The position numbers were made by a program, and so were the translations under genes. Of a DNA stretch of 24,000 bases, positions 363-22,923 are shown piece by piece; position 1 is the stretch's first letter; each line of letters opens with the position of its first letter. This stretch comes from Terriglobia bacterium (lineage in GTDB: Bacteria > Acidobacteriota > Terriglobia > Versatilivoradales > Versatilivoraceae), in NCBI GenBank assembly GCA_963663845.2, contig OY760650.2, forward strand, positions 1,468,927 to 1,492,926. The letters run 5' to 3'. The notes beneath the pieces were generated by a model. The model ran no database searches and was not told where the DNA came from. It saw nothing but the letters and a program-made list of their open reading frames with translations.

Positions 363-423
363 GAGCCATTTGCAAGATTTGCCGGAAGGAGACCACCCGG
401 GAGCGCGGGCGTCTCGCCCGCAT
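363..423 (+). repeat. Mosaic intergenic repeat: TTTGCAA-box segment plus GC hairpin core (H motif)
   Basis: GAGCCATTTGCAAGATTTGCCGGAAGGAGACCACCCGGGAGCGCGGGCGTCTCGCCCGCAT. The hairpin GCGGGCG-TCT-CGCCCGC is at 405-421. The reverse complement of 22815-22878 aligns along its whole length. It lies directly after the stop of the 426-1157 gene. Confidence 0.75.
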
Positions 424-425
424 CC

Positions 426-1157
426 TTACTTGCGAGCCACCACGACCTGCCGGTCGAAGCCCCAGCCGGTCACGTCCTGGCCCCGGACCAGGCGGCGCCG
501 GCTGAAGCCGGCCGCGCCCAGCCGATCCAGAATATCGGTCCCGTAGTTGCGATAACAGAGAACGGCCCCGGAGCCTCGAATGCGGTCCCCATGATATTCC
601 GGCGGCAGCAGGTGCTCCAGCCTGCCGTCTACCAGCCGGACTCTTTCCACGGTTTTCTCGGCGCCTGCCATCGGAACGGTGAACAGCAGCGACCCACCCG
701 GCCTGAGCACCCGGCGCAGCTCTCCAAAGCCCTGCAGATCATTGGGAACGTGCTCGAAAACCTCGGTCGAGGTGCAGACGTCGAAGCAGCCGTCGGGGTA
801 GGTCAGTTGCTGCACGTCCTGACATTGAACCCCTGCCTGGTATTGCCCGGGAGGCACGTCATCGAAATACTCGGAAAGCGTCAGCTTGCCGGCATGCCTG
901 CGAAGATAGCCCACCAGGGGGCCCCTGGAGGACAACTCGTACACATGGCGGCTCGACAGGTCGGGGAGGACGCCCTTCAGCACGCTCACAAAGGAGAGGG
1001 TGGCGGCGCTGGAGCGGCACCTGAGGCAGCGGACGGCCATCTCGTAGTCATCCAGCTTGACGAACCCCGCAGGGCCGCACACGGGACAATCGCCGACCCT
1101 GACCCCGACCTTGCGCCAGTTCAGCAGCGCCGCGGCTGTCCGTATCTCCCTCAACAT
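426..1157 (-). CDS. Class I SAM-dependent methyltransferase with N-terminal Cys4 zinc-ribbon-like motif
   Basis: 243 aa ORF. CPVCG...CLRCRS lies near the N-terminus. The methyltransferase fold signature is FDVCTSTEVFEHVPNDLQGFGELRRVLRPGGSLLFTVP (Methyltransf_11/25-like). Confidence 0.85.
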   Translation of the reverse strand: MLREIRTAAALLNWRKVGVRVGDCPVCGPAGFVKLDDYEMAVRCLRCRSSAATLSFVSVLKGVLPDLSSRHVYELSSRGPLVGYLRRHAGKLTLSEYFDDVPPGQYQAGVQCQDVQQLTYPDGCFDVCTSTEVFEHVPNDLQGFGELRRVLRPGGSLLFTVPMAGAEKTVERVRLVDGRLEHLLPPEYHGDRIRGSGAVLCYRNYGTDILDRLGAAGFSRRRLVRGQDVTGWGFDRQVVVARK

Positions 1158-3110: not shown

Positions 3111-3164
3111 GGCTGTGAGGAACAGGATACCCCCCTCGATTGGATTCAGGCAAGCCCAGCCCGG

Positions 3165-3320
3165 CCCCTCCACGACGGTGCGGATCATACGGGAGTGAAA
3201 CACCCAATCGTCAATAAAGGCGAACCACGAATGAACACGAATAGACACGAATGCCAATGGACCTCCTTGGCTGCGATGCCGTCACGGGATGAAGCCCCAC
3301 CTGGGGGCGCCTCTCCCGTG
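3165..3320 (+). repeat. Interspersed repeat family E (copy b), ending in a degenerate H motif
   Basis: CCCCTCCACGACGGTGCGGATCATACGGGAGTGAAACACCCAATCGTCAATAAAGGCGAACCACGAATGAACACGAATAGACACGAATGCCAATGGACCTCCTTGGCTGCGATGCCGTCACGGGATGAAGCCCCACCTGGGGGCGCC... aligns along its length with the reverse complement of 13889-14055. It contains CACGAAT at 3226, 3236 and 3246, an exact 10-nt period. Confidence 0.8.
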
Positions 3321-3451
3321 TGTCTTGGTGGATCACTCCTTTTTTCGAGCCATTTGCTGAATGTGGCAGCGGGACGTTTCCCGAGAATGGCTACAAAAAG
3401 GACAGAAATACAAAAAGAACCCTCGGACCGGCAAGACTCGAGTTCAAGAAA

Positions 3452-3545
3452 CTCATTTTGTGCCTTTTGTGCTTTTTGTGGTGAATGACGGAGCCGGTAG
3501 GCCGCCTCAACGTCATTCCCGATGGGGAATTTTGCAAAGGGCTCA
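3452..3545 (+). repeat. Interspersed repeat family C (copy 1)
   Basis: TTTTGTG occurs three times at 9-nt period (3456, 3465, 3474). This is followed by GTGAATG.CGG, CCGCCTCAACGTC, the hairpin ATTCCC-GATG-GGGAAT (3515-3530) and TTTTGCAAAGGGCTC. The same order of blocks occurs at 16234-16350. Confidence 0.8.
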
Positions 3546-3551
3546 TGACCT

Positions 3552-3668
3552 ATTGGTGTTCATTCGTGTCCATTCGTGGTTCGCCGTTCCCCGTGGTGGA
3601 TATCTCTTTCCCTTTTGTGTCTTCCTTGGTGACCCTTCGTGGATTTCTTTTTGGAGGTCTTCGTGGAT
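3552..3668 (+). repeat. Short-repeat arrays (ATTGGTG/ATTCGTG x3 at 10-nt period; CTTCGTGGAT x2)
   Basis: ATTGGTG is at 3552, with ATTCGTG at 3562 and 3572. CTTCGTGGAT is at 3635-3644 and 3659-3668. Related arrays occur at 3226-3252, 13962-13988 and, in reverse complement, at 11691-11716. Confidence 0.65.
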
Positions 3669-3718
3669 AACCCCTCATTCGCTTTCGACTCGGAGGTGCA
3701 TTGGCTCCGTCCGCCGGC

Positions 3719-5040: not shown

Positions 5041-6159
5041 ATGCGGGCCAGCTCCCCAATCTCGGCGCCGCTCCTGCTGGCGGTGTGGGTTCTGGGCTTT
5101 CCGGGGGCGGCCCGGCTCCATGCCTCCGACCTGCGGAACCCTTCCGAGGTCATTCCCGGCGGCGAGACCCTGGTCTACGAGGTCCGCTGGGACCCTCCGG
5201 CCTGGCTGTTCTTCATCCCCACCATCAGCGCCGGCGAGATGACTCTCAAGTTCGAGAAGGGAGTCGACGAGGGGGGCAGGCCCATTTTCAGGATCACGGC
5301 CGATGCGGTCTCCGCCGGAGTGCTTCCCCGGCTGACGGGCATCACCGTCAAGGACCACTTCGAGTCGCTGGTGGCGGCCGAGGGGTTCTGCTCCAACCGG
5401 TTCACCAAGATCACCCGGGAAGGCAGGCGCCACCGGGACGTGGTGCTCACCTTCGACCAGGAGTCCCGTCGGGGCCGCTACCTGGCCTGGGACGCTGCCC
5501 AGAAGCCGCCCAGGGAGCTGAAGAACGAGGAGCTGGAAGACCTTCCCCCCTGCGTCCAGGACTTCCTGTCGGCCATCTACCGCACCCGATTGCGAGGGCT
5601 CCGGGTGGGAGAGAACTACCCGCTGCACGTGAGCGACAACGGAGTGGTCAAGGAGGTCGACATCCGGGCGGTGAGGCGCGAGCGGGTGGAGGCCATTGCG
5701 GGAACCTGGTCCGCCATCAGAATCGACACCGTTTCGGTGGGAGGGCTCTTCAAGGGGGGAGGGAGCTTCGTGCTCTGGTTCAGCGACGACGGGGCCAGCA
5801 TCCCCGTCAAGTACGAAGCCCAGGTCAAGTTCGGGAAGCTCTTCGGCACCATCAAGCACCTGGAGGGCGCCGCGGCCAAGCGGGCCGACTCGCCCCCTGC
5901 GACAACGGAGCCGTCAACAGGCAGGCTACACCAGTTCCTCGATGGGGGTTCCGGTCTCGTCGTTGATGGAGTTGGCGATCTTGAGCGGACGGCCGATGGG
6001 ATGCATGTACTCCTTGGTCCAATCGATGCCGAACGCCTTGTAGATGGTCGCCAGCAGGTCTCCCACGGTCACCATCCGATCGGCCACGTAGGCGCCGCGC
6101 TCGTCGCTCGACCCGATGACCTGGCCGCCCCGGATTCCGCCGCCGCCCAACACCACTGA
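5041..6159 (+). CDS. DUF3108 domain-containing secreted protein with an unusually long C-terminal tail
   Basis: The ATG lies 3 nt after the ispG stop. There is a signal peptide (MRASSPISAPLLLAVWVLGFPGAARLHA). DUF3108-like blocks are GETLVYEVRW, AGEMTL, VQDFLSAIYRTR and FVLWFSDDGASIPVKYEAQVKFGKLFGTI. The first in-frame stop is at 6157-6159, so the last 234 nt overlap the convergent DUF1501 gene. Confidence 0.75.
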   Translation: MRASSPISAPLLLAVWVLGFPGAARLHASDLRNPSEVIPGGETLVYEVRWDPPAWLFFIPTISAGEMTLKFEKGVDEGGRPIFRITADAVSAGVLPRLTGITVKDHFESLVAAEGFCSNRFTKITREGRRHRDVVLTFDQESRRGRYLAWDAAQKPPRELKNEELEDLPPCVQDFLSAIYRTRLRGLRVGENYPLHVSDNGVVKEVDIRAVRRERVEAIAGTWSAIRIDTVSVGGLFKGGGSFVLWFSDDGASIPVKYEAQVKFGKLFGTIKHLEGAAAKRADSPPATTEPSTGRLHQFLDGGSGLVVDGVGDLERTADGMHVLLGPIDAERLVDGRQQVSHGHHPIGHVGAALVARPDDLAAPDSAAAQHH

Positions 6160-7269
6160 GAAGCAATGGCACCAGTGATCCCGGCCTCCGCCGACATTGA
6201 GGTCATGGGTCCGGCCGAACTCTCCCGTCACCACCACCACGGTTGACTCCAGCAGGCCCCTCTGCTCCAGGTCCTCCAGCAGCGCCGACAACGTCTGGTC
6301 CACCACCGGCACCAGGTAGTCGCGATGTTGGTAGTCGTTGCCGAAATGGGTGTCCCAGTCGCGCCCCGTCTGGGGCCGGTTCAGGTCCAGAGCCGTCACG
6401 AAGCGGCTGCCCGCCTCCACCATGCGCCGCGCGATCAGCACGCTCTGGCCGAAGGTGTTGCGGCCGTAGGCATCCCGGGTCGCCTCCGACTCCTTGGAGA
6501 GGTCGAAGGCCTCCCGGACCGCCGGCGACAGGATCATGTTCCAGGCCTGGGCCCGAAAGGCGTCCATGCTGGCATGCTCGGCGCTTTCCACCTTGCGGCG
6601 GTAGAGTTGGTCCACCACCCCCAGGAAGGAGCGCCGCGACTCCATGCGCTCCACCGTGAGCCCCTCCGGCAGGCTCAGGTCGGGCACCTCGAAGCCCTGG
6701 TCGTTGGGATCGGGGATCTCCAGCGGCTCATAGCGGGCTCCCAGGAAGTGGGCCTTGTAGTAGTTCCGGTACCCGGGATGGATCTTGGGGACGATGATGT
6801 TGGCCGGCACGTCCCGCCGCGGCCCCATCTCCTTGGTGATGATGGAGCTGAAGGCGGGGAACTTCATGGAGGGGTTGGGCCGGTGCCCGGTCATGACGTA
6901 GTGGTGGCCCAGGCCGTGGTTGTTCTCCTCGGTATGCATGGAGCGAATGACCGCCAGCTTGTCCATGTGCCTGGCCGAACGGGGGAGAAGCTCCGAGATC
7001 CGGATGCCCGGCACGTTGGTCGAGATGGGCTTGAAGGAGCTGTTGGCCTTGGGGTCCCACATGTCGATGTGGCTGGGACCCCCGTTGAGCCAGAGCAGAA
7101 TGCAGGCCTGGGCCTTGCCCGGCAGGGCCGCGCCGCCCGAGGTTGCGAGCGGAGCCGCCTGCAGGTAACGGCTCAGGTTCATTCCCATGAAGCTCAGGGC
7201 GCCCACCCGCAGCATGGAACGGCGGCTGAGATCGGCTCCTTCGACAATCCAGCGACTTGGCTTTTTCAT
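5926..7269 (-). CDS. DUF1501 domain-containing protein (sulfatase/alkaline-phosphatase-like fold), Tat signal; module copy 1, gene 3
   Basis: 447 aa. The twin-arginine motif is LSRRSMLRVGALSFMG. DUF1501 blocks are ILLWLNGGPSHIDMWDPK, AVIRSMHTEENNH, TGEFGRT, GGRDHW and VLGGGGIRGGQVIGSSD. The RBS GAGGGAG lies before the ATG, 21 nt after the upstream stop. Confidence 0.9.
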   Translation of the reverse strand: MKKPSRWIVEGADLSRRSMLRVGALSFMGMNLSRYLQAAPLATSGGAALPGKAQACILLWLNGGPSHIDMWDPKANSSFKPISTNVPGIRISELLPRSARHMDKLAVIRSMHTEENNHGLGHHYVMTGHRPNPSMKFPAFSSIITKEMGPRRDVPANIIVPKIHPGYRNYYKAHFLGARYEPLEIPDPNDQGFEVPDLSLPEGLTVERMESRRSFLGVVDQLYRRKVESAEHASMDAFRAQAWNMILSPAVREAFDLSKESEATRDAYGRNTFGQSVLIARRMVEAGSRFVTALDLNRPQTGRDWDTHFGNDYQHRDYLVPVVDQTLSALLEDLEQRGLLESTVVVVTGEFGRTHDLNVGGGRDHWCHCFSVVLGGGGIRGGQVIGSSDERGAYVADRMVTVGDLLATIYKAFGIDWTKEYMHPIGRPLKIANSINDETGTPIEELV

Positions 7270-7290
7270 GGAACTCCCTCGTTAGGTCCC

Positions 7291-9861
7291 TCAGTGGTTT
7301 TCCGCGAATTCGCGAGAGGTGATCAGGGCCCACAGCAGATCTTCCAGGGCCTCTCCGCGTTGGGGGTGGGAGCCGACCAGCGCGGCCAGCCGGTTCGACT
7401 CCTCCTCGGTGGGAAAGCGGGAAAGGGCGGCCAGGTAGAGTTCCTCGATCGCCTCCCGGTCCGAGGCTTGACGTTCGAGCAGCCCCTCCAGGCGGCCTCC
7501 CGGCCTGCCCAGCTTTCGGTTGTAGGTCGAGCCGACCAGGATGTGCAGCGCCTGGCTGAGGTTGACCTTGTTGTCTCGTCCTCCCACCGCATCCCGCTGA
7601 GGCCGGCCATAGATGTCCAGGAACCGGGACCGGTAGCTGGCGGGAAACTTCAGATTGATGGCCCGTGTTCCCGGAGCCGCCGTTTCGTAGGCGTAGATTT
7701 CATTCCCGGGAGGCACGAAGTCCTCGGGAACGCCGGTCGCCGCCGATACGGCGTCCAGCAGCACTTCGGCTTCCAGGGGTCGAGGCAGCGCGTGGGAGTA
7801 GTTGACGTGGTCGTCCCGATTCCCCGGATGGGTCCGGCTGGAGAGCTGATAGGTCCCGGAGAGGACGATGCGACGGATCAGGTGCTTCAGATCGTAGCCG
7901 TGGTCGCGGAAATCTTCGGCCAACCGCTGCAGCAGGCGGGGATGGGTGGCCGGATTCCCCAAGCGGAAATCGTCCACCGGCTCGACCAGCCCTCTTCCGA
8001 AGAAATGCCCCCAGTAGCGGTTGACGGTGGCCCTCGCAAAGTCGGGATGGTCCGTCATCCAGCGAGCCAGCTCCAGGCGCTGGTCGGTTCTGGAAGCAGG
8101 CGCCAGGGCCGTCCCGTCCAGGAAGGCGGGCTCCACCCGGGTCTTGCGGCGGGGATGGGTGACCTGCTTGAAGACCAGAGAGGTCTGTCCCATTTCCCCG
8201 TAGTCCTGTTCGTGCCCTGCCGGATCATCAAAGACGACCATGTTCGACCCGTTGCCGACGTTGGTGGCTCGACCGAAGAAGGCGGCCAGGCCCCAGAACT
8301 GGTTTTGGGTCCAGAGGTCGTAGGGATGGTTGTGGCACTGGGCGCAATCCATGCGACGCCCGAAGAAGACCCGGAACTGCTCGGCCACCACCGTTTCCAC
8401 GCTGGCGCCGGCCCGAATGAGGTGCTTGGAGGCCCCATCGGATCCCTGGGCGGCGATCCTCTCCTGGGCGACCAGGTCGTAAGGCTTGTTGGAGGCCAGG
8501 CTCTGCCGTATCCACTCCCAGTAGTCGTAGGCGGAAAGCCGGACCCGGAAGAGATCCGACCAGCGAAAGGTCCAGTAGTCCACGTATTCGGCGGAATCGA
8601 GCAGGACTTCCACCAGCTTCTCCCGCTTTTCGGGGTCGCGGCTGGCCAGGAACTCCCGCACTCGTTCCGGAGGCGGCAGCGTTCCGGTCACGTCCAGGCA
8701 GACGCGCCGCAGGAACTCGGCATCGTCGGCCGGCGGAGAGGGACGGATGTGGAAGCGCTCCAGCTTGTCGAAGATTTCCTCGTCGATCAAGTTGTTCCGC
8801 GCCACCCGGGGGAAGCCGTCCAGGGTCCGGCGAATCACGCCGAAGCGGGCGTGGCCCACCTTGCCCGCGGCCCGAACCAGGACCACGGCTTCGCCGGCGC
8901 GCCGGCCCTGCACGCGGCCTCCGGAACCGACCTCCAGCACCTCCCGGTTCAGAGATTCAAAGCGAACCTGCCCGGTAATGTCTTCGCTGCGGCCGTCGGA
9001 CAAATACGCCGTGACCAGCATCTGGTAACCGCCGTCCTCGAGCACCACCGCCTCTTGCGGAAAGACCTCCAGCCGCTGGATCACCGGGTCCGTCCCGGCG
9101 GGCCGGCCATAGGGGGCGCCGGCTCGAATCCAGCGCAGGATCGTCCGGTAGTCTGTGGATCCTTCTTCGAAGCGCATCCCCCCGCCGTGGGGCTGCCCCA
9201 GGGTCGGTTTCAGCAGGAGGAGGCTGTTCTCGGGGGCTTGGAGGTCGATGCGGGGGTTTCGCGGCCCTCGGGGCTCGTCGGTGAGCACCTGGTAGCCGCC
9301 GCCCTGGACAATCCAGTCGTAATCTTCCGCCGGATGCATGGCATTGGAGGAGAGTCGAAACCCGCCTCGGCCTTTCACCCCGCCGTGACAACTGCTGCCG
9401 TTGCAACCCTGCCTGGTCAGGATTCGGGCAATGTCGGTGACGAAGCTGGCCGGATCCCTCCTGCCGGACTGGCTGGTCCGGACCGCGGCCAGGGCGCTGT
9501 GGCCGCCCAGCGACGCCCTGAGCGTGGCTTCACCGTCGGAGACCGAAACCAGCTTGCCTTCCGGACCCAGGCTGGCCACCTCGGGGCGGGAAATCGAGAG
9601 GCTTGCCTGCGCCGTCACCTCCCGCTCCAGGCCGTCAGAGCCGGTCGCCAGCACCAGAACGCGCTGGCCGGCGCCGGCTCCCGACAGCGCCACCTGCTCC
9701 GGCACCAGCCGCAGGGAGACGATCTCCGAGGATGCCTGTCGATCCTCCGCCAGGGCGCAAACCGGAACGAGGCACCCCAACAGGCTGGCCGCCAGACCGA
9801 GGAAGCCGGCAGCGAGTTTCGCCCGGAACGGCCCAATGCGATTGGCTGACGTCATGGACAT
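7291..9861 (-). CDS. DUF1549/DUF1553 (PSCyt/PSD 'planctomycete cytochrome'-type) protein with N-terminal Ig-like segment; module copy 1, gene 2
   Basis: The signal peptide follows ATG 9859-9861 (MSMTSANRIGPFRAKLAAGFLGLAASLLGCLVPVCALA). The ORF track starts earlier, at 9963. Family motifs are GCNGSSCHGGVKGRGGFRLS, FIDEEIFDKLERFHIRPSPPADDAEFLRRVCLDVTGTLPP, RMDCAQCHNHPYDLWTQNQFWGLAAFF and the C-terminal LWALITSREFAENH. Confidence 0.9.
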   Translation of the reverse strand: MSMTSANRIGPFRAKLAAGFLGLAASLLGCLVPVCALAEDRQASSEIVSLRLVPEQVALSGAGAGQRVLVLATGSDGLEREVTAQASLSISRPEVASLGPEGKLVSVSDGEATLRASLGGHSALAAVRTSQSGRRDPASFVTDIARILTRQGCNGSSCHGGVKGRGGFRLSSNAMHPAEDYDWIVQGGGYQVLTDEPRGPRNPRIDLQAPENSLLLLKPTLGQPHGGGMRFEEGSTDYRTILRWIRAGAPYGRPAGTDPVIQRLEVFPQEAVVLEDGGYQMLVTAYLSDGRSEDITGQVRFESLNREVLEVGSGGRVQGRRAGEAVVLVRAAGKVGHARFGVIRRTLDGFPRVARNNLIDEEIFDKLERFHIRPSPPADDAEFLRRVCLDVTGTLPPPERVREFLASRDPEKREKLVEVLLDSAEYVDYWTFRWSDLFRVRLSAYDYWEWIRQSLASNKPYDLVAQERIAAQGSDGASKHLIRAGASVETVVAEQFRVFFGRRMDCAQCHNHPYDLWTQNQFWGLAAFFGRATNVGNGSNMVVFDDPAGHEQDYGEMGQTSLVFKQVTHPRRKTRVEPAFLDGTALAPASRTDQRLELARWMTDHPDFARATVNRYWGHFFGRGLVEPVDDFRLGNPATHPRLLQRLAEDFRDHGYDLKHLIRRIVLSGTYQLSSRTHPGNRDDHVNYSHALPRPLEAEVLLDAVSAATGVPEDFVPPGNEIYAYETAAPGTRAINLKFPASYRSRFLDIYGRPQRDAVGGRDNKVNLSQALHILVGSTYNRKLGRPGGRLEGLLERQASDREAIEELYLAALSRFPTEEESNRLAALVGSHPQRGEALEDLLWALITSREFAENH

Positions 9862-9999: not shown

Positions 10000-11406
10000 T
10001 CAACCAGTCGGAACTTGCGGAAGCAGTTGAAAGCCAAGGGATTTAGCAGCATCTTTGAGGCCCGCGAGGCGGCGTTGCCGGAAGCGGTCTTCGTAGAGGT
10101 CCTGCCCGATGTCGACATAGTCCTGGCCGTAGCGCAGCATTCGGTAAACGAGAACGGCCAGCCTGCGGGCCATGCAGAAGACGGCGACACTCCATCCCTT
10201 GTGGCGGGCCTTGCGACGGAAGGCGGCGCCGAGAGCGGTCTTGGAGTGCTTGAGGGAGACGGCCGCCATGCGCAGGACGCCAGCGACCCGGGTGGACCCG
10301 GTGCCGTTGGGCTTCTTGTAGTGGAGCGGCTTGCCTGCGGAAACGGCCGTTTTCGGAGCCAGGCGCAGCCAGGAGACGAAGTGCTTCTCCGAGGGGAAGG
10401 CCGTCAGGTCAAAGCCGGCCTCGGTCAGCAGGGTCAGGGCGGCTTCGGTGCCGATGCCGTCGATGCGCGTCAGGTCGACCCCGGCAAAGCGCCACAGTTC
10501 GGTGCGCACGTTTTGGCCGCCCCGGCGGCGAATCGCCTTCTCCTTGATCGCATTGGGATGCTTGGGCGCGGATTGGTCGCGGCGCTCCACCGGTTGCAAG
10601 GCGCGTATCTCCTCCAGGATGCGCGCCTCATAGGCCGCGATCTCGCGCTGAGTCATGTCATATAACTTGAGCGCCGACTCGAGGTTGAACAGATGCTCCT
10701 CCCGCCAGTTGCCCGCCAGGTGCTCGGCAAACTCCTCGCTGGACTTCTTGCACCGCCCATGACGCAGGGCCGCCAGACGGCGAGGGTCCCGCTCTCCGTC
10801 CACAATCGCCCGCACGATCGCCATTCCCGTCTGACCGGTCAGATCGGTGACCGCACGATGGATCTGGATGTTCATCTGATCCAGCGCCTTCTGCATCCAC
10901 TGGACAAAACGGGTGCTTTCCCTCACCAGATTGCTCATCTGCCGGTGCAGACCCCGGATGGCGACGATGATCTCGTGCGGACGGAACGATCCCCGCAGCA
11001 AGCCACAACTGTGCAGCAACTGAATCCACTGGCAGTCCCGCATGTCGGTCTTGCGGCCCGGAACGTAGCGCAGTTGCCGGGCGTTGACCAGCAGGACCTC
11101 GATGCCGCAGGACTCCAGCAGTTCGTAAAGGGGAATCCAATACACGTTGGTGCTCTCCATCGCCACCGACTCCACCCCTTGCTCCAGCAACCACTCGACC
11201 AGTTGCTGCAACTGCGGCATGGTGGTGCCGAAGGTGCGCACGTTCGGCGTCCCAGCGGTCACCTCTGGAGCGCACACCCAGTGCTCCCGACTCCCCAGGT
11301 CGATCCCCGCCACCTGGGGGTGTATCCGCGACAACGCCGTGGAACTGCTGCGCTTCCTCTTGCGGCTTTTCTTCGCCTTCGTGTTGACTTTTCTGCTCTT
11401 GTCCAT
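10000..11406 (-). CDS. IS110 family transposase (DEDD recombinase)
   Basis: 468 aa. The N-terminal DEDD_Tnp_IS110-type blocks are VAGIDLGSREHWVC and VAMESTNVYWIPLYELL. The C-terminal Transposase_20-type blocks are LTRIDGIGTEAALTLLTEAG and FPSEKHFVSWLRLAPKTAVSAGK. The RBS GAGGAGG lies 8 nt before the ATG. Confidence 0.93.
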   Translation of the reverse strand: MDKSRKVNTKAKKSRKRKRSSSTALSRIHPQVAGIDLGSREHWVCAPEVTAGTPNVRTFGTTMPQLQQLVEWLLEQGVESVAMESTNVYWIPLYELLESCGIEVLLVNARQLRYVPGRKTDMRDCQWIQLLHSCGLLRGSFRPHEIIVAIRGLHRQMSNLVRESTRFVQWMQKALDQMNIQIHRAVTDLTGQTGMAIVRAIVDGERDPRRLAALRHGRCKKSSEEFAEHLAGNWREEHLFNLESALKLYDMTQREIAAYEARILEEIRALQPVERRDQSAPKHPNAIKEKAIRRRGGQNVRTELWRFAGVDLTRIDGIGTEAALTLLTEAGFDLTAFPSEKHFVSWLRLAPKTAVSAGKPLHYKKPNGTGSTRVAGVLRMAAVSLKHSKTALGAAFRRKARHKGWSVAVFCMARRLAVLVYRMLRYGQDYVDIGQDLYEDRFRQRRLAGLKDAAKSLGFQLLPQVPTG

Positions 11407-11604
11407 GAGATTGGCCTCCTCGGGGGCGATGGCTCCGGCCCGAGTTGGCGTGGTCGTTCGGATTCTTGTCTTGAGGAGAGCTTCCAGAGAAGCCTCACTA
11501 ATGAATGATGGCCTGCTCGGACCCAGACTTGCCTTGGGGCACTGGGCACCAATGTTCGCACGGGGTGTAGCTGCCGGAGCCTCGCCAGGAGCCTATTCTG
11601 TCAC

Positions 11605-11640
11605 AATGATCCGTTGTTTCACCCTCGGATGATCTGCCCG
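11605..11640 (+). repeat. Fragment of repeat family E (copy c)
   Basis: AATGATCCGTTGTTTCACCCTCGGATGATCTGCCC aligns with GACGATTGAGTGTTTCACTCTCGAATGATCCGCAC (14001-14035) and with the reverse complement of 3178-3212. Confidence 0.55.
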
Positions 11641-11759
11641 GCAGGGCAGGGGTGGTGCTTGCCTGAAACAAACGGAAAAAAGAGGAATCCACGAAGACAC
11701 ACGAAGGACGACGAAGGGCCACCAAGCGGGACGGCTCTGTCGCATCGGCAGGGGCTGTG

Positions 11760-11969
11760 CCTCCTCGCGGAGCAAGAAGGATGGGAGGAGGCGCCCCTCC
11801 GGGAGCGCGGGCGTCTCGCCCGCATCCCCTGCGTCGGGTGGCCGCTCCGTTTCCCCGTGGTGCGACGCCCGGCCACCCTGCCGGCAGGAACGGCCTGAGC
11901 TCGGCTGAAGCGGAATCGTGGCGCCGTTGCCGGTCGAGCACGGTGGAGGAGAGGGGTGAGGCTGTGCCA
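11760..11969 (+). repeat. Left part of a composite H-armed repeat, interrupted at 11969/11970 by the group II intron
   Basis: Aligns by eye at roughly 80% with 22600-22808. The shared blocks are CCTCCTCG.GGAG.AAGA..GATGGGAGGAGGC, then CCGGGAGCGCGGGCGTCYCGCCCGCATCC (core at 11799-11825, hairpin at 11807-11823), then GGCCACCCTGCCGGC.GGAAC, then CTGTGCC. Confidence 0.75.
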
Positions 11970-12016
11970 GTGTTGTATCGCGGTAGGAATCCGCATTGCT
12001 GGGGACCCCCCGCACA

Positions 12017-12049
12017 GATCCGGACGTGCGCAGCTAGCGCATCCGGCTC
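12017..12049 (-). ncRNA. Group II intron domain V hairpin
   Basis: The minus strand reads GAGCCGGAU-GCGC-UAGCU-GCGC-AC-GUCCGGAUC. This is the canonical 9-bp basal helix with the AGC triad, a 2-nt AC bulge and a distal helix. It starts 5 nt after the IEP stop codon. Confidence 0.75.
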
Positions 12050-12054
12050 CTCCC

Positions 12055-13521
12055 TCAGGTGTTGACGAGCATTCGTCGGTCCGGCCATGGATGCCGGATT
12101 CCCAGTCTCGGCCAGTAGGTCGCCGCCAGTCGGTTCATCGCCTCCCAGCTATATCCGCCCTTCTGGGATCGTCGATTGATTGCTCGCATCCACAATCTCA
12201 GGACGTGGCTCGCAAAGCGTCTCAGATAGCGCAGGCTGGTCGGGACAGCAAAGTAGTTCAGCCATCCGTTCAACACTCGCCCCAGCCATTTGCCGGTCTT
12301 CCCGATGCCTTCATGCATCCGCCTGCTCAGCTCCTCCTTCACTCGCTTCAGGGTGCGCCTCATCCGTTTCGCTATCGGTTTGCGCCCCAGCCCGTAGCGT
12401 CCCTTCCGGTCCTTCCTGCAATAGTGCGTGAAGCCCAGGAAGTCGAACGTTTCCGGTCTCCCCTCCCCCCTCCTTCGTCGGTTCTCTGCCGCATACCGTC
12501 CGAACTCGATGAGTCGGGTCTTCTCCGGGTGCATCTCCAACTCGAACCGTCCGATTCGCTCCTTCAGGTCGTTGAGGAATCGCTCCGCATCCCGCCGGTA
12601 CTGAAATCCCACCACGAAGTCGTCGGCGTACCGCACCATCAGGGTCTCGCCTTCGGCCTCGCGGGTCCGCCATTGCCTCTGGAACCAGAGGTCCAAACCG
12701 TAATGCAGGTAGACGTTCGCCAGGATCGGCGATATCACCGCCCCTTGCGGCGTCCCCTTCAGGTCGTCCCTCCACTCTCCATCCTCCATGACGCCGGCGT
12801 TCAACCACTTGGCAATCAACCGTATCACCCGCTCATCCCCGATGCGGTGCCTCAGAAACCGCAGCATCCAGTCCCGCGACACGTTGTCGAAGAATCCGCG
12901 TATGTCCGCGTCGATGATCCACCTGATCTTCCGCCGCCCGATCCCGACCGCCAGGGCGTCCAGCGCATCGTGCCCCCCTCGGCCAGGTCGAAACCCGTAA
13001 CTGAACCCCAGGAACTCCGCCTCATATATCGGCGTCAGCAGGTTGTCCGCCACGGCCTTCTGGACGATCTTGTCCTCCAGCGCCGCCACGCCAAGCGGTC
13101 GTGTCCCGCCATCCGCCTTGGGTATCTTCACCCGCCGCGATGGCGTCGCCCGGTACGCTCCCCGCTGTACCCGGTCATGCAGGTCGACCAATCGATCTTC
13201 CAACCCAACCGCGTACTCTTTCCACGTCATGCCGTCCACGCCGGGGGCCGCCCACCTCTTCAACTCCCCGTAGGCTTTCCTCAACGCCTCCACCGTGATG
13301 TGGTGCAGCAGCGCCGTCAACCGACTCTTCGGTTCCCGTTCGATGAACTCCCGTATCCGGTCCGCCGCCTGGGACACGCTCCCCCGTCTCTGCGTCCGGC
13401 GCGTGCTTTGGCTTTCCGGCTTCCCTTCGGGTAAGGCCCTTCGCTCCACCGACTCCGCCGGGAATCTCTCCCCTTTGTTCGCCGGCTTCTCCACTACTAT
13501 GGCCTCATCTGACTTCTTCAT
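12055..13521 (-). CDS. Group II intron reverse transcriptase/maturase (no endonuclease domain evident)
   Basis: RT blocks are RVKIPKADGGTRPLGVAALEDKIVQ, GFRPGRGGHDALDAL, GTPQGAVISPILANVYL and YADDFVVG. Maturase blocks are FDFLGFTHY and LNGWLNYFA. The C-terminus is GIRHPWPDRRMLVNT. The start is placed at the second ATG (MKKSDEAIVV), 9 nt after GGAG. The ORF track begins 9 nt earlier, at 13530. Confidence 0.93.
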   Translation of the reverse strand: MKKSDEAIVVEKPANKGERFPAESVERRALPEGKPESQSTRRTQRRGSVSQAADRIREFIEREPKSRLTALLHHITVEALRKAYGELKRWAAPGVDGMTWKEYAVGLEDRLVDLHDRVQRGAYRATPSRRVKIPKADGGTRPLGVAALEDKIVQKAVADNLLTPIYEAEFLGFSYGFRPGRGGHDALDALAVGIGRRKIRWIIDADIRGFFDNVSRDWMLRFLRHRIGDERVIRLIAKWLNAGVMEDGEWRDDLKGTPQGAVISPILANVYLHYGLDLWFQRQWRTREAEGETLMVRYADDFVVGFQYRRDAERFLNDLKERIGRFELEMHPEKTRLIEFGRYAAENRRRRGEGRPETFDFLGFTHYCRKDRKGRYGLGRKPIAKRMRRTLKRVKEELSRRMHEGIGKTGKWLGRVLNGWLNYFAVPTSLRYLRRFASHVLRLWMRAINRRSQKGGYSWEAMNRLAATYWPRLGIRHPWPDRRMLVNT

Positions 13522-13888
13522 GCCGTGCATCTCCGGTCTCGGATCTCTCCTTCCCTTTGCGGTCCCGCCACGACTGACGGAACAGCATGAAGACCTCCCA
13601 GGTCCCGGTGAAGCGCTTACGTGCGTGCCTGGGTTCTAAGACACCGCGGGGCTCCTCTCCCCCTCACCTTGGCGGTGGAGCGGATCTTGCCTTCGGCTGC
13701 CCGCATGGCCTCGGCACCCCGGATGAGCGTGTTTTCGGTGCTCAATAGCCCTGCCCACACGCACCCCTGTCAACGCTTGACCCACACCCTCGCGGTTGTA
13801 GGCCCATGACTCGGGGCGGAAGTGGTGGTTAACCTTTCCTTCCCGCCGGACTTTCACCGGCTACGCTTCACCAGTTAGCCTGGCGCTC

Positions 13889-14055
13889 GCGGGCGAGACG
13901 CCCGCGCTCCCGGGGGGGCCTTCATCCCATGACGGCGTCACAGCCAAGCAGGTCCATTGGTATTCGTGTCCATTGGTGTTCATTCGTGGTTCGTCTTTTT
14001 GACGATTGAGTGTTTCACTCTCGAATGATCCGCACCGTCGTGGGGGACGGGGGCA
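13889..14055 (-). repeat. H hairpin arm plus repeat family E (copy a); forms the 5' exon of the intron
   Basis: The hairpin GCGGGCG-AGA-CGCCCGC is at 13889-13905 and the H core at 13889-13913. The rest is family E, with ATTCGTG/ATTGGTG at 13962, 13972 and 13982, then GAGTGTTTCACTCTCGAATGATCCGCACCGTCGTGG to about 14055. The element begins only a few nt after the stop of the 14059-15975 gene. Confidence 0.8.
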
Positions 14056-15975: not shown

Positions 15976-16060
15976 GTTGACCTCCCAACCAAGTCGCACC
16001 TGATATTGAAAAAGGCAGAACATCACGGGTGTCGGCGAAATGACCTGACCCGCTACGAAT

Positions 16061-16147
16061 GTTGCAAAAGGCTCTTGAGGCGTTTGCAAAAATCGGCAGC
16101 AGGATCGTTACCGGCATTGGCCACAAAAGGCACAAAAAACACAAAAT
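16061..16147 (-). repeat. Repeat family C, inverted copy (preceded by a direct TTGCAAAAGGCTCTTGAG box)
   Basis: GTTGCAAAAGGCTCTTGAGG is at 16061-16080. The reverse complement of 16081-16147 then reads TTTTGTGTTTTTTGTGCCTTTTGTGGCCAATGCCGG...GATTTTTGCAAACG. CACAAAA occurs at 16122, 16131 and 16140, a 9-nt period. Confidence 0.7.
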
Positions 16148-16250
16148 GAGCGGAACGACCAGAAGCGACCAAGGCATGCGGGCCCTGTGCGATCAGGTCC
16201 GCCAAACAGCCTTCGAACTGCCCAAAAAATTGGTTTTGTGCCTTTTGTGA
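16146..16250 (+). pseudogene. Possible N-terminal remnant of a GxxExxY-family gene
   Basis: MSGTTRSDQGMRALCDQVRQTAFELPKKLVLCLL*. The stretch LCDQVRQTAFEL resembles the N-terminal helix of GxxExxY proteins as I remember them (..LCD.VR.T.F.IH.YLG.G.LEKVYENAL). The frame is cut off where repeat C copy 2 begins. This is a memory-based resemblance over about 15 residues only. Confidence 0.25.
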
Positions 16251-16350
16251 CTTTTGTGCCTATTGTGGTGAATGCCGGCGTTTACAGTCCTCTACCCTTG
16301 CCGCCTCAATGTCATTCCCGATTGGGAATTTTGCAAAAGGCTCTCTTGAG
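16234..16350 (+). repeat. Interspersed repeat family C (copy 2)
   Basis: TTTTGTG is at 16234, 16243 and 16252 (9-nt period). It is followed by GTGAATGCCGG, CCGCCTCAATGTC, the hairpin ATTCCC-GATT-GGGAAT and TTTTGCAAAAGGCTCTCTTGAG. Confidence 0.8.
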
Positions 16351-16431
16351 AATGGAATTGGGAAACAGGAAAGCAACGGGCGGCAGGCGCGACGGCCCAA
16401 AAGGCGATCGGCGCACCCTCACCGGGACGGT

Positions 16432-16463: not shown

Positions 16464-17789
16464 CTACACCAGCTCGTGAACCGGATGGCCCTGCTTGTCC
16501 CCGATGGAATTGGCGATGTAGAGGGGCCGACCGTCCAGACCGGTATAGGTCTTGGTCCAATCCACCCCCAAGGCCTTGTAAACCGTGGCGAAGAGATCCC
16601 CGACGGTCACCTGGCGCTCGGCCACGTAGGCCGCGCGCTCGTCGCTGGCGCCCACGACCTGGCCGCCCTTGATTCCGCCGCCTCCCAACACCATGGACCA
16701 GCAATGGGCCCAGTGATCCCGACCGGCTCTGGCGTTGATTTTCGGCGTTCGCCCGAATTCGCCCATGGCCATGACCACCGTCGTCTCCAGCAAGCCCCTT
16801 TCCTCCAGCTCGGTCAACAGCATCGAAAGCGCCTGGTCGAAGCGAGGGGCCAGATTTTCAGACAGCAACTTGTCGTTGTCGAAATGGATATCCCATTCGC
16901 TGTGGTTGAAGCCCTCGGCGGTCACGAAGCGGCAGCCCGCCTCCACCAGGCGGCGGGCCAGCAGGACCGACTGTCCGAAGCGCGTCTTGCCGTAGGCTTC
17001 CCGCACCCGGTCCGGCTCCGCCGACAGGTCAAAGGCCTTCTTGACATTGGGCGAGAGGATCATCCTCAGGGCCTGCTCCTGGTAGGTGTCCATCTTGCTG
17101 AATCGGGCAAACTCCTCCTGCTGCCGGTAGTGGTGATCGACCACCTTCAGGAAGGATTGACGGTCCTGAAGCAGCTCGGGGGAGAGGGACTTCGGCAAGG
17201 TCAGATCGGGAATCTTGAAGTCTTCCTTGCTGGGATCGGGAACGATCATGGGGTTGTACTGGGGACCCATGTTCCCCGCCATGTAGGAGTGCCCGTAGGA
17301 GAGGGGCGGCGTGACCACGTAGGGCGGGATATTGTTCCGCCCTCCCAGCTCACGGGAGACGATCGACCCCAGGCTGGGAAATCGGAATGCCGGGCTGGGG
17401 CGATGCCCGGTCATCCCGTAGTAGGTGCCTTCGGGATGGTTCCCTTCCTCGCTGTGCATGGAGCGGATGATGGACAATTTGTCCATCTGCCGCGCCACCC
17501 GGGGAAGCGTCTCCGAGATCTGAATCCCGGCCACGTTGGTCGAGATGGGTTTGAAATTGCTGTTGGGCTTGGGATCCCACATGTCCATGTGGGGCGGACC
17601 GCCGGAAAGCCAGATGAGAATGACCGACTCGGCCTTCTTGCGCGCACCGGTACCGGTGGCGGCCAGCGTGTCGGCCAGCCTGAAGTAGTCGCTCAGCGTA
17701 ATGCCGAGGAACGTCAGGCCGCCCACCCTCAGGAACTGGCGACGCTCGAAGTTGCCTCCGGTGCAGGAAAGACATTCCGGCAGGTTCAT
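16464..17789 (-). CDS. DUF1501 domain-containing protein, Tat signal; module copy 2, gene 3
   Basis: The start is chosen at ATG 17787-17789 ([29 protein letters not shown]). This places the RR motif 15 residues in, as in the paralog, and GGGGGA lies upstream. The ORF track starts at 17873. Blocks are [44 protein letters not shown] and [17 protein letters not shown]. Confidence 0.9.
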   Translation of the reverse strand: [441 protein letters not shown]

Positions 17790-17876
17790 CACGATCCCCC
17801 AAAGCTGCTGCTTGAAAACGGGTTGGGGCGGAACTGCCCCAACCCCCCGGTTCCAATGGAGCTTAACCCTCAATTA

Positions 17877-20426
17877 TCAATGATTGTGCGAAAATTGTCG
17901 AGAACTAATTAGGCCCCAGGCCAGGCTCTCGACGGCTTCTCTTCGAGGGCGCTCGGATATCATTGCCTCCAGCCGCGCCCGCTCCTCGGCCGTGGGAAAC
18001 CGCGACAGGGCGGCCAGGTAGAGCTCGTCGACGATTTCTCCGTCTCCAGCCTCGCTCCGGAGCAGCCGGTCCACGCGCCCGCCCTCTCGCGCCAGCTTTT
18101 CGGTAAAGGTCTTTCCCGTCAACATGTGCAAGGCCTGGGCTAGGGCGGGCTCGGGCTTGCCTTCGGGCAGGGTCTTGCGCTCATTGCGTTCGAAGACGTC
18201 CATGAACTGAGAGGGCATGCTCGGCATCAGGGCGATGGCCCGGGTGCCCGCGGCAAAGCCCCGCTCGCCGCTGGCGAACGTCTCGGGAACCTCGGTGACC
18301 TGCGAGATGGCATCCAGCAACACCGCCGCCGGCAGCGGCTTCGGCAGCGCGTGAGAGAAGTTCAGGCGATCGCCCCGGTTGGTCTGGTTGGGGATGCCCG
18401 ACAACTGGTAGGTCCTGGACTGGACGATCACCCGCATCAGGTGCTTCACGTCGTGGCCGTTGACCCGGAAGTCCTCGGCCAGGGCCTTGAGCAACTCCGG
18501 GTGGGTGGGCGGATTGGTGGAGCGGAAGTCGTCGACGGGATGGACGATGCCCTTGCCCAGGAACCAGTCCCAGACCCGATTGACAAAGGCTTCGGCGAAA
18601 TAGGGGTGGGACACGATCCACTGCGCCAGTTTCATCCGCAGATCGGTTCGCTCGCCTTCCGGCAATTCCCGCCCGTCCAGGAAGCGCGGCTGGACCACCT
18701 TCTTGGTCCTGGGATGGACCACCCGGTCCTTGAGGGCGGGGTCGTCCACCAGCAGGGAGTCGTCCATGACCGAGTCCCGCAGATCCACCATCCTGCCGTA
18801 AAAGGCGGCCATCCCCCAGAACTGATCCTGGCTCCAGGCCTCGAAGGGATGGTTGTGGCAGCGGGCGCAGTCCAGCCGCCGGGCCAGGTAGACCCTCACC
18901 TGCTCGGCAATCATTTCCGCCGGCGGGATGATGAACCGCAACTGGTAGAAGAAGCGGGAGGGACCGTCGTAACCCTGGGCCGCAATCCTGTCCACCGCCA
19001 GTTGGTCGTAGGGCTTGTTGATGGCGATGCTCTGTCTCAACCACTCCCCGTAGAGCTGGGTGTCCTTGCCCAACTGGGTGGCGCCGCCGTACCAGCGGAA
19101 GATCTCCCCGTACCTGAAGAAGAGAAACTCCTCGAATTCGGGCGAATTCAGAAGGATCTCGATGATCCGGTTGCGCTTGTCGGGGTCGGTGGAAGCCAGG
19201 AATTGGCGGACCCGGTTGGGCGGCGGCAAGGTCCCGGTCAAGTCCAGACAGACCCGCCGGAGAAACTCGGCATCGCTGGAGAGCTCCGAGGGGACGATGT
19301 TGAATTTCTTCAGCTTGGCGAAGACATGCCGGTCGATGAAGTTGTTTTCCGGCGCCTCGGGATAGCTGGGGAGCGGATCGGCGATCACGCCGAAACGGAC
19401 GGCGGCGGCCCGGCCCGGCGCTCGAACCAGGACGCTGGTCTCCCCGGTCTTGTGGGCCTTGACCAGGCCCCCTTCGTCGACGTCCACCACCGATCGGTTG
19501 ATGGACTCGTAGACGACCTGCCGGGTGACATCCTCTCGCCGGCCGTCGCTGAGGTGGGCCGTGACCAGAATCTGCTGCTTGCCATCCAGATCCAGCACGC
19601 TTGCCCGGGGGTAGACCTCCAGGCTCTCGATCTGGATGTTCTCGGATTCACCTTCCTCGCCGTAGGGGGCCCCCAATTGAATCCACTGGAGGATCCTGGC
19701 GTACTGGGGGGAGTCGGAGCCGAATCGGAGCCCGCCTCCGTGGGGTACCTGGAGAGTGGCCTTCTGCAGAATCAGGCTCTTCTCCGGATCCTTCAGATTC
19801 ACCCGTGGATGGGGAGGTTCCTCCATTTCAGCCGTGAGGACTTCGAACTTCCCTCCCTCCACGATCCACTTGTAGTCGTCCCGCGGATAGGTGGCGTTGG
19901 TGGAAAGCTTGAAACCGCCCTGTCCGGGAACGGCGCCATGGCAGGTGGTGTTGTTGCAACCCTGTTGGGTCAGCAGCGACCCGATATCGCGAGGAAAGCT
20001 GAAGGGGCGCTTTTCTTGGGATCCCCGAATGGCGATGGAGGCCGTAGCCTCTCGTCCCGCCACCCGGGCCGTGAGCACCAGGTCGCCGTCCGCAAGCGGC
20101 TGGATGCGGCTGTGGGCGGAGAACCGGATCAATCCGGACTTGGAGCCGGAAAACTCCGCCTGCGCCGTGAGGTCGCGCTCCAGGCCGTCCGAGAAGGTTC
20201 CCATCACCAGAAACTGCTGGGAGGCATCGGCCCCCTGCAGCCGGACCTCGGAGGGCGCCAGGCGGAGTGACGACGGTTGGGGCGAGGTTCCCTGGGCGGT
20301 TCCCTCAACCTCTGCAGCCTGGACAAGTGCCGCCAGCAAACAGGATGCCCCAAGGGCCCACACGGCAATCAGGGCGGCCGGCGTTCGGCGGATGGCGGAA
20401 GCCTTCCTGCAGGATTTCGTTTCCAT
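17877..20426 (-). CDS. DUF1549/DUF1553 (PSCyt/PSD-type) protein with N-terminal Ig-like segment; module copy 2, gene 2
   Basis: 849 aa. The signal peptide is RRTPAALIAVWALGASCLLAALVQA. Motifs are GCNNTTCHGAVPGQGGFKLS, FIDRHVFAKLKKFNIVPSELSSDAEFLRRVCLDLTGTLPP, RLDCARCHNHPFEAWSQDQFWGMAAFY and the C-terminal LAWGLISSRQFSHNH. The ATG lies 5 nt after the upstream TAA. Confidence 0.92.
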   Translation of the reverse strand: METKSCRKASAIRRTPAALIAVWALGASCLLAALVQAAEVEGTAQGTSPQPSSLRLAPSEVRLQGADASQQFLVMGTFSDGLERDLTAQAEFSGSKSGLIRFSAHSRIQPLADGDLVLTARVAGREATASIAIRGSQEKRPFSFPRDIGSLLTQQGCNNTTCHGAVPGQGGFKLSTNATYPRDDYKWIVEGGKFEVLTAEMEEPPHPRVNLKDPEKSLILQKATLQVPHGGGLRFGSDSPQYARILQWIQLGAPYGEEGESENIQIESLEVYPRASVLDLDGKQQILVTAHLSDGRREDVTRQVVYESINRSVVDVDEGGLVKAHKTGETSVLVRAPGRAAAVRFGVIADPLPSYPEAPENNFIDRHVFAKLKKFNIVPSELSSDAEFLRRVCLDLTGTLPPPNRVRQFLASTDPDKRNRIIEILLNSPEFEEFLFFRYGEIFRWYGGATQLGKDTQLYGEWLRQSIAINKPYDQLAVDRIAAQGYDGPSRFFYQLRFIIPPAEMIAEQVRVYLARRLDCARCHNHPFEAWSQDQFWGMAAFYGRMVDLRDSVMDDSLLVDDPALKDRVVHPRTKKVVQPRFLDGRELPEGERTDLRMKLAQWIVSHPYFAEAFVNRVWDWFLGKGIVHPVDDFRSTNPPTHPELLKALAEDFRVNGHDVKHLMRVIVQSRTYQLSGIPNQTNRGDRLNFSHALPKPLPAAVLLDAISQVTEVPETFASGERGFAAGTRAIALMPSMPSQFMDVFERNERKTLPEGKPEPALAQALHMLTGKTFTEKLAREGGRVDRLLRSEAGDGEIVDELYLAALSRFPTAEERARLEAMISERPRREAVESLAWGLISSRQFSHNH

Positions 20427-22556: not shown

Positions 22557-22878
22557 GGTGTTTTTCGTAAAGGATGATTGCGGTTTGTACCCCCGATCAC
22601 CCCTCCTCGAGGAGTAAGAGTGATGGGAGGAGGCCATCCGGGAGCGCGGGCGTCCCGCCCGCATCCTCTCCCCTGGGTCGCCGCTCAGTTTCCCTGCGAT
22701 GCGGCGCCCGGCCACCCTGCCGGCGGGAACCGCATGGGCCCGACCAAAGTAGTGCCAGGGCGTCGTTTCCGCGCGATCCGACTGGGGGAGATGGGCGAGA
22801 CTGTGCCGGGATTTATGCGGGCGGGACGCCCGCGCTCCCGGGGGTTGTCCTTCCGACGAATTTTGCAAAAGGCTCAAC
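22557..22878 (+). repeat. Uninterrupted composite repeat: family E fragment, then two inverted H arms ~150 nt apart, then a TTTTGCAAAAGGCTC box
   Basis: GGTGTTTTTCGTAAAGGATGATTGCGG (22557-22583) is the family E tail. H arm L, CCGGGAGCGCGGGCGTCCCGCCCGCAT, is at 22638-22664. H arm R, ATGCGGGCGGGACGCCCGCGCTCCCGG, is at 22815-22841 and is the exact reverse complement. GGTTGTCCTTCCGACGAATTTTGCAAAAGGCTC then runs to 22875. Confidence 0.8.
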
Positions 22879-22923
22879 AGATTACAAGGGGCGAAACGTC
22901 CGTCTGGCACTACCGTCCTGAAA

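Follow-up and report, generated by a model that had tools for sequence, protein, structure and literature searches.

A group II intron of a Terriglobia genome that probably homes by base-pairing to the hairpin sequence of a dispersed repeat

RmInt1 and RmInt2 of Sinorhizobium meliloti are group II introns of class D (RNA type IIB3) whose reverse transcriptase (RT)-maturase has no endonuclease (En-minus). RmInt1 uses the lagging-strand template, with priming by the nascent strand at the replication fork (PMC8914252, PMC5894124), and RmInt2 targets both inverted repeats of ISRm17, so that one target lies on the lagging-strand template (PMC5894124). Class C (IIC) introns, represented by B.h.I1, O.i., GsI-IIC and the IIC-attC lineage, instead recognise a stem-loop upstream of the intron-binding site IBS1 as a structure and insert 3–11 nt downstream of the stem; their exon-binding site EBS1 spans 3–4 bp, EBS2 is missing, and domain V is 2 bp shorter, with CGC replacing AGC (PMC1702495). 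Here we analyse a group II intron in a stretch of 24,000 nt (the window) from a Terriglobia bacterium (GCA_963663845.2, OY760650.2:1,468,927-1,492,926), inserted next to a GC hairpin in a repeat that we call the H element. We hold with high confidence, for the statement taken as a whole, that this is an intact and recently active retroelement with IIB-like RNA of the RF02005 type, and that it homes to a single 25-nt site by base-pairing to the hairpin sequence, using an RT-maturase without endonuclease and specialising on the repeat.

The closest behavioural precedent is RmInt2/RmInt1. As in those introns, the protein is an RT-maturase lacking an endonuclease, recognition of the target relies on EBS1, EBS2 and EBS3, this target lies inside another repeated mobile element, and both arms of the H element are used just as RmInt2 uses both repeats of its own target. 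Unlike them, the intron belongs to a different lineage (the class D representative E.c.I9 is RF01999-type, with a protein only 33% identical), it targets a small, non-coding repeat containing a perfect hairpin rather than the terminal repeat of an insertion sequence, and IBS1, the segment read by EBS1, is complementary to IBS2, the segment read by EBS2. With class C introns it shares an En-minus protein, a small ribozyme, an intergenic stem-loop neighbour, recognition of the 3′ exon of the EBS3 type and similar sequence blocks at the 5′ end, whereas the EBS1 of 3–4 bp, the lack of EBS2, the CGC triad and the short domain V that belong to IIC are all absent here. The IIE/IIF introns (Cl.be.I2, Pe.th.I2 and others) likewise combine a compact IIB-like RNA with an En-minus protein, have both EBS1 and EBS2 within stem d of domain I, their IBS1 and IBS2 directly preceding the splice site, and show a 5-nt domain V loop instead of a tetraloop; they also have α′ in the terminal loop of a domain I d3 hairpin, for which our intron offers a candidate. 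The 436 nt of our intron outside its open reading frame (ORF) fall just below their published 450–700 nt (PMC3753933). Finally, introns on proteobacterial plasmids, probably Kl.pn.I5 and relatives in Burkholderia, Cupriavidus and rhizobia, belong to the same Rfam family RF02005, which is common on such plasmids; their proteins are ∼55% identical over the full length including the N-terminal extension, and they are ∼1910 nt long and end in CUACCGCGAY, but their EBS sequences and targets are different. Site-specific En-minus introns that have specialised on a repeated element are a kind already known, and the finding leaves the current understanding of group II intron mobility unchanged.

Intron boundaries, encoded protein and exon-binding sites

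The intron occupies positions 11977–13888 on the minus strand (1912 nt), starts with GAGCG and ends with ...CCUACCGCGAU, as defined by Rfam matches, relatives and near-identical copies. Model RF02005 (group-II-D1D4-6) matched 13854–13632 with a score of 175 bits (cut-off 49), with the full model (1–225) covered, and RF00029 (domains V/VI) matched 12051–11977 at 39.4 bits (E = 1e-5), missing its cut-off of 40 by 0.6; relatives score 41–45 bits with the latter. A previous interpretation of this DNA, made without database searches (the sequence-only reading), had placed a group II intron on this strand and had proposed classification with Rfam; both searches and the protein match given below bear it out, and the ribozyme is of the RF02005 type.

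Both ends were compared with 79 loci encoding relatives of the intron protein, from which ∼30 related introns were aligned. Homology begins exactly at 13888, as GTGCGCC or GAGCGCC, so that the 5′ end proposed earlier was correct; the other candidate considered at that time, GTGCG at 14035–14031, belongs to a different repeat module and was rejected. Most relatives start with GTGCGCCAGGCTAACTGG. The GAGCG found here is a U2A variant of GUGYG that no fewer than four other family lineages share, the remaining relatives having GUGCG or GUGUG. At the 3′ end, all relatives terminate in CUACCGNRAY/ (a slash marks a splice junction or insertion point), with AU as the last two bases here, which puts the end at 11977. 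The position given by the sequence-only reading, 11970, was therefore 7 nt too far, and the intervening ACAACAC (11976–11970) is exon that is kept in other copies. Nine near-identical copies of 1911–1912 nt each agree with these boundaries.

Between the two Rfam matches, in domain IV, lies an intact gene for a protein of 491 amino acids (12055–13530, minus strand), with an RT domain containing YADD and a maturase (X) domain. The protein matches TIGR04416 (the NCBIfam model for group II RT/maturases) at 354 bits against a cut-off of 300, the match stopping at residue 454. Because RVT_1 is its sole Pfam domain, it lacks an endonuclease domain; neither an HNH or other endonuclease domain nor a DNA-binding domain was found in it. 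A look-up of the exact protein sequence found no record; the protein is 98% identical to the protein P0001, and the corresponding cluster at 90% identity has 69 members. Domain V was located at 12017–12049 (minus strand) by the RF00029 alignment and family comparison; it has 33 nt, one base under the standard 34 nt, with an AGC triad, a lower helix of 9 bp, an upper helix of 4 bp and the 5-nt loop UAGCU, where relatives have 4 or 5 nt. The G of the domain V triad usually faces U; here it lies opposite an A (3′ strand ...GGAUC), as in nearly all of 29 family sequences. Domain VI, located by the same alignment at 11980–12013 (minus strand), has its bulged branch-point A at 11984, at a distance of 7 nt from the 3′ splice site. 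The intron is probably mobile at present, as is indirectly suggested by the near-identical copies described below, which share one site in different contexts.

Three pairings connect the intron to its exons, and each covaries within the family. EBS1 (GCGGGC, 13699–13704, minus strand) is placed by the RF02005 alignment in a hairpin loop of domain I and pairs over 6 bp with the last six bases of the 5′ exon. This pair had already been picked out in the sequence-only reading, and it is borne out by all 13 of 13 lineages, in which five or six of the six positions pair with the own exon compared with a mean of 2.9 with foreign exons (0 of 20000 permutations reach the observed value). In the alignment of 30 relatives, the six loop positions and the last six exon bases change together, with compensatory changes. 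EBS2 (ACGCUC, 13725–13730, minus strand) occupies a one-sided internal loop of domain I stem d and pairs with exon positions −15 to −10 (GGGCGU); its loop is variable among relatives, and the paired runs average 5.6 bp with the own exon versus 4.1 bp with foreign exons, a value again reached by none of 20000 permutations. EBS3 is a U at 13639 (minus strand; intron nt 250), a bulged base in the basal part of stem d that was found by a column scan; at 21 of 22 sites the 3′ exon begins with its complement, as U with A, G with C or A with U. A position of EBS3 within the EBS2 loop had also been considered and was rejected, inspection of the alignment by eye having given no covariation there.

Judged from the sequence, the hairpin has IBS1 as one arm and IBS2 as the other, the two being mutually complementary. 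A pairing of ∼4 bp is also possible between EBS1 and EBS2, and in the transcript the first intron G lengthens the hairpin stem to 8 bp.

The sister lineage (L085 and L086; proteins 87–89% identical) provides a clean natural case of group II intron retargeting, since it differs at EBS1 (CUCGGC), EBS2 (UCACU) and EBS3 (G). Within the EBS2 loop it differs at exactly the EBS2 bases, and the target has changed alongside. The sister intron sits at GGTGAAAGCCGAG/C in a DDE transposase gene, and no hairpin is present there. In both loci (L085:1728–4776 and L086) the host gene is of the DUF772/DDE_Tnp_1 type and the intron lies in sense orientation.

Repeated insertion into H elements

The 5′ exon ends with CCGGGAGC-GCGGGCG-TCT-CGCCCGC, which forms a perfect 7-bp GC hairpin at 13905–13889 within the occupied H arm (13889–13919, minus strand); IBS1 corresponds to 13894–13889 and IBS2 to 13903–13898. 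IBS3 is the A at 11976 (minus strand), the first base of the 3′ exon, and is A in 11 of 11 copies. The rest of the interrupted H element spans 11793–11976 and consists of the interior (11824–11976) and an unoccupied inverted arm (11793–11823), the equivalent of which is the occupied one in L001, L084 and L091–L093. An uninterrupted element at 22625–22854, with arms at 22625–22664 and 22815–22854, represents the empty site, and a solo unoccupied arm was located at 384–426 (plus strand) by repeat comparison within the window. The arms of the uninterrupted element are 150 nt apart, and 153 nt separate 11793–11823 from 13889–13919 once the intron is removed. Hence the sequence-only reading was right that the intron follows directly on a repeat-borne GC hairpin and that an empty site of the same architecture is preserved, and it overstated the repeat in only one respect: instead of at least five other copies of the hairpin repeat in 24 kb there are five H arms in total, that is, four others. 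The 23-nt H core occurs five times in the window, where none would be expected by chance. In every empty H arm examined the base directly 3′ of the hairpin is A.

Nine further copies with readable junctions were obtained from the 69-member protein cluster in three public metagenome assemblies: a contig of a Tara sample holds one, a single assembly holds seven, each on its own contig, and the last lies on a contig of 4.9 Mb (ERZ24894577). Together with the window copy these ten introns (window, L084 and L087–L094) are 98.7–100% identical, while the median identity of their flanks outside the H core is ∼60%. All nine are preceded by ...GGGAGCGCGGGCGTC, then C or T, then CGCCCGC/, with A as the next base, and the junction ...GCCCGC/A falls at the same nucleotide in 10 of 10 copies with a readable 5′ junction. 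The proposal that the hairpin repeat is the homing site is thus upheld, every one of the nine further copies adjoining an H hairpin and none lying elsewhere. One more copy, L001, has no 5′ junction and is assigned to an H element through its 3′ exon, which matches the sequence after GCCCGC in the adjacent tandem element.

Both H arms are used. Insertion into the window-type arm gives the 3′ exon ACAACRCTGGCACAG, and insertion into the opposite arm gives ATGCAC... or ATCCTC...; in L090 and L094 the intron occupies atypical or solo arms. On the opposite strand each H hairpin presents an identical stem, with AGA as its loop and G as the next base; none of the 10 junctions read lies at this mirror hairpin. 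Neighbouring genes differ among the copies, and those on the seven contigs of the single assembly are unrelated. Across the sequences examined there are 31 H arms, of which 11 are occupied and 20 empty. A metagenome pattern scan with the intron 5′ end gave no matches.

Because the intron copies are 98.7–100% identical and their flanks only ∼60%, on this comparison the intron is an element that has spread by homing and was not carried along by the repeat. The homing site is, very probably, the 25-nt sequence CCGGGAGCGCGGGCGTCYCGCCCGC/A at the inner end of each inverted arm of the ∼230-nt H element, a level of confidence that belongs to this statement jointly with the rest of the reading given at the outset. 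For annotation, this site predicts the locations of further copies in these genomes. The genomes that bear copies appear to come from coral and marine metagenomes, and one record is labelled Latescibacterota; that record, L001, is a genome bin with the isolate label Plut, which points to the coral Porites lutea.

Recognition of the hairpin

Passive spread, in which the intron entered one H element once and the repeat was then duplicated or transposed with the intron inside, would agree with the large number and often tandem arrangement of H elements, and with the 3′ flanks shared by the window, L087 and L088 at 93–95% identity. However, most flanks are only ∼55–70% identical around introns that hardly differ, either arm may be occupied and so may solo or atypical arms, 20 of 31 arms are empty, and seven copies of one assembly have unrelated neighbour genes, so that we regard passive spread as scarcely credible. 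Class C behaviour, in which the ribonucleoprotein recognises a folded stem-loop of DNA or RNA plus a short IBS1 and any suitable hairpin is a target, is very unlikely, if slightly less so. The sequence-only reading had regarded insertion after a stem-loop as the class C habit, and a likeness of the intron 5′ end to O.i. points the same way. So do the perfect GC hairpin directly before every copy, the small non-ORF RNA of 436 nt, the resemblance of the first ∼40 nt to IIC introns (the start of B.h.I1 being readable from primer sequences; PMC1702495) and the best matches among proteins of solved structure, which are IIC RTs (7uim, 164 bits; 6ar1, 148 bits). Proteins of class D, F/g3 and g1, with 33–35% identity, are nevertheless at least as close. 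The published hallmarks of IIC introns (PMC1702495) are not those of this intron: EBS1 is 6 bp long and covaries at all six positions, EBS2 is present (ACGCUC with GGGCGU), the triad is AGC and not CGC, and domain V, at 33 nt, is not 2 bp shorter. Moreover, IBS1 is itself the 3′ arm of the stem and insertion is flush with it rather than 3–11 nt downstream, no T-run follows the hairpin, relatives with other EBS sequences, including the sister lineage, sit at sites without a hairpin, and the equivalent hairpin on the other strand was never used in 10 junctions. The class C interpretation is therefore largely refuted. Since the IIC hallmarks are missing, the sister site has no hairpin and the opposite-strand hairpin is unused, recognition looks like one by sequence and not by shape, the hairpin being what the target sequence happens to be. 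Adjacency to a hairpin alone is insufficient to call an intron class C.

A hybrid is also conceivable: base-pairing would set the site, and affinity or access would gain from a hairpin extruded in single-stranded DNA or formed in the transcript, an IIB-like intron having converged on hairpins. Two RF02005 lineages do directly adjoin the 3′ arm of a palindrome, which is the H hairpin in one and an SOS box in the other (L082 and L083, described below), and the first intron G extends the stem in the transcript to 8 bp. Against this, the EBS1 and EBS2 pairings and the folded stem are mutually exclusive, ∼25 other target types of the family have no such hairpin, and two cases among many lineages may be chance, palindromes being common in repeats and operators; we consider the hybrid improbable. 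Hairpin enrichment was not found at family insertion sites: among 38 distinct sites a clean stem ending at the junction occurs only at H sites, a G-U-rich 7-bp stem in L077 being a weak case. A stronger form of the idea, which we also judge unlikely, by a shade less, is that a IIB-like lineage outside class C independently exploits DNA hairpins, with the H hairpin or SOS-box palindrome as a determinant of recognition or access on single-stranded DNA at forks, and that the intron co-proliferates with the hairpin-bearing repeat; this estimate covers all of its parts jointly.

Homing by base-pairing remains our preferred explanation, and in it the 3′ arm of the hairpin is the partner of EBS1 (GCGGGC), the 5′ arm with the first loop base that of EBS2 (ACGCUC), and the A after the hairpin that of EBS3 (U). 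Since IBS1 is bound to IBS2 within the stem, the hairpin would have to open both for integration and for splicing, and would not serve as a folded landmark; the folded form may thus be dispensable. By analogy, reverse splicing most likely takes place into DNA that is melted or transiently single-stranded, and since the protein has no endonuclease, cDNA synthesis would most likely be primed by nascent strands at replication forks, as for RmInt1. A target in both inverted arms would always offer one copy in the favourable strand orientation.

Several observations weigh against this explanation or limit it. GC skew outside the intron is flat and gives no information on the direction of replication. 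All H sites share both sequence and structure, which makes a contribution of the folded hairpin inseparable from that of base-pairing, and the occurrence of a second RF02005 lineage flush with the 3′ arm of a palindrome (L082 and L083) would allow a palindrome preference. The register of EBS2 shifts by 1–3 nt between lineages, and in IIE/IIF introns EBS2 is dispensable for self-splicing in vitro (PMC3753933). Junctions and splicing are predicted from DNA. The target itself is unusual in that IBS1 is complementary to IBS2 and the intron must compete with a stable GC stem; for that reason it offers a convenient system for the access of En-minus introns to structured DNA.

Class placement, relatives and neighbouring sequences

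Representatives of four ORF classes were compared with the intron: E.c.I4 of class A (protein identity 29%, no Rfam D1-D4 family), E.c.I9 of class D (33%, RF01999), Sr.me.I2 of g1 (35%, no Rfam D1-D4 family) and Ni.ha.I1 of F/g3 (34%, RF02003). With identities of 29–35% and another or no Rfam D1-D4 family, these classes were excluded, and Ni.ha.I1 in particular, with its RF02003-type RNA, differs from the intron in this respect. A class D (RmInt1-like) label had been considered: E.c.I9 is listed as class D, and a B. phymatum relative of our intron appears under class D as 'D110(-), incomplete' (PMC3552965 Table S1). It was rejected on the RF01999 type and 33% protein identity of E.c.I9. By elimination among these references of A, D, g1 and F/g3, class E, to which S.me.I4 of the S. 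meliloti plasmid pRmeGR4b belongs, is most likely the appropriate label. The RNA is, from its sequence features, IIB-like with some traits published for IIE/IIF introns. A candidate α′ was seen by eye as a loop ..GGUGA.. or ..UGGC.. that could face ..ACCA.. or ..GCCA.. in an earlier hairpin.

Two RF02005-type introns, L082:2064–2140 on an Enterobacter KPC plasmid and L083:1061–1140 on B. cenocepacia pBCJ2315, lie in an SOS-box-like palindrome. Their site is TACTGT-N8-ACAGT/AT, just upstream of umuD or imuA, and the intron is flush with the 3′ arm of the palindrome. L082 is probably Kl.pn.I5, as suggested by host, plasmid context and length only (PMC3522654 supplement). A literature search found no paper describing the SOS-box palindrome as an intron target, and searches of literature text found no class label for Kl.pn.I5, class E or the SOS-box introns. 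The top protein matches also included about 3700 plasmid records of Klebsiella.

Relatives also occur in tandem or nested arrangements. L009 (2580–2700) has a head-to-tail pair. A Rhodothermales genome holds ∼25 copies, and there a copy without the ORF lies inside domain I of one that carries it (L021:1936–2800; likewise L023, L024, L026, L033, L040, L045, L064, L065, L070 and L074). In L061:4500–4570 one intron lies within the domain V-VI linker of another.

Intergenic regions of the window at 3140–3700, 11600–11790, 13905–14050, 16030–16360 and 22855–22880 are mosaics of short repeat modules, among them iterated 9–10-nt units (CACGAAT..., TTTTGTG...), a GATCATNCGNGAGTGAAACA module and a TTTTGCAAAAGGCTC module. 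The same composite recurs at 3270–3330 without an H element, which points to the H element as an insertion in its own right, possibly with CCNGG at its flanks. A gene for an RNA-guided transposase of the IS110 family lies at 10000–11406 (minus strand), ∼380 nt downstream of the interrupted H element. Two paralogous gene blocks, at 6013–9717 and 16551–20270, are ∼3.7 kb long each, 70–76% identical and ∼10.5 kb apart.

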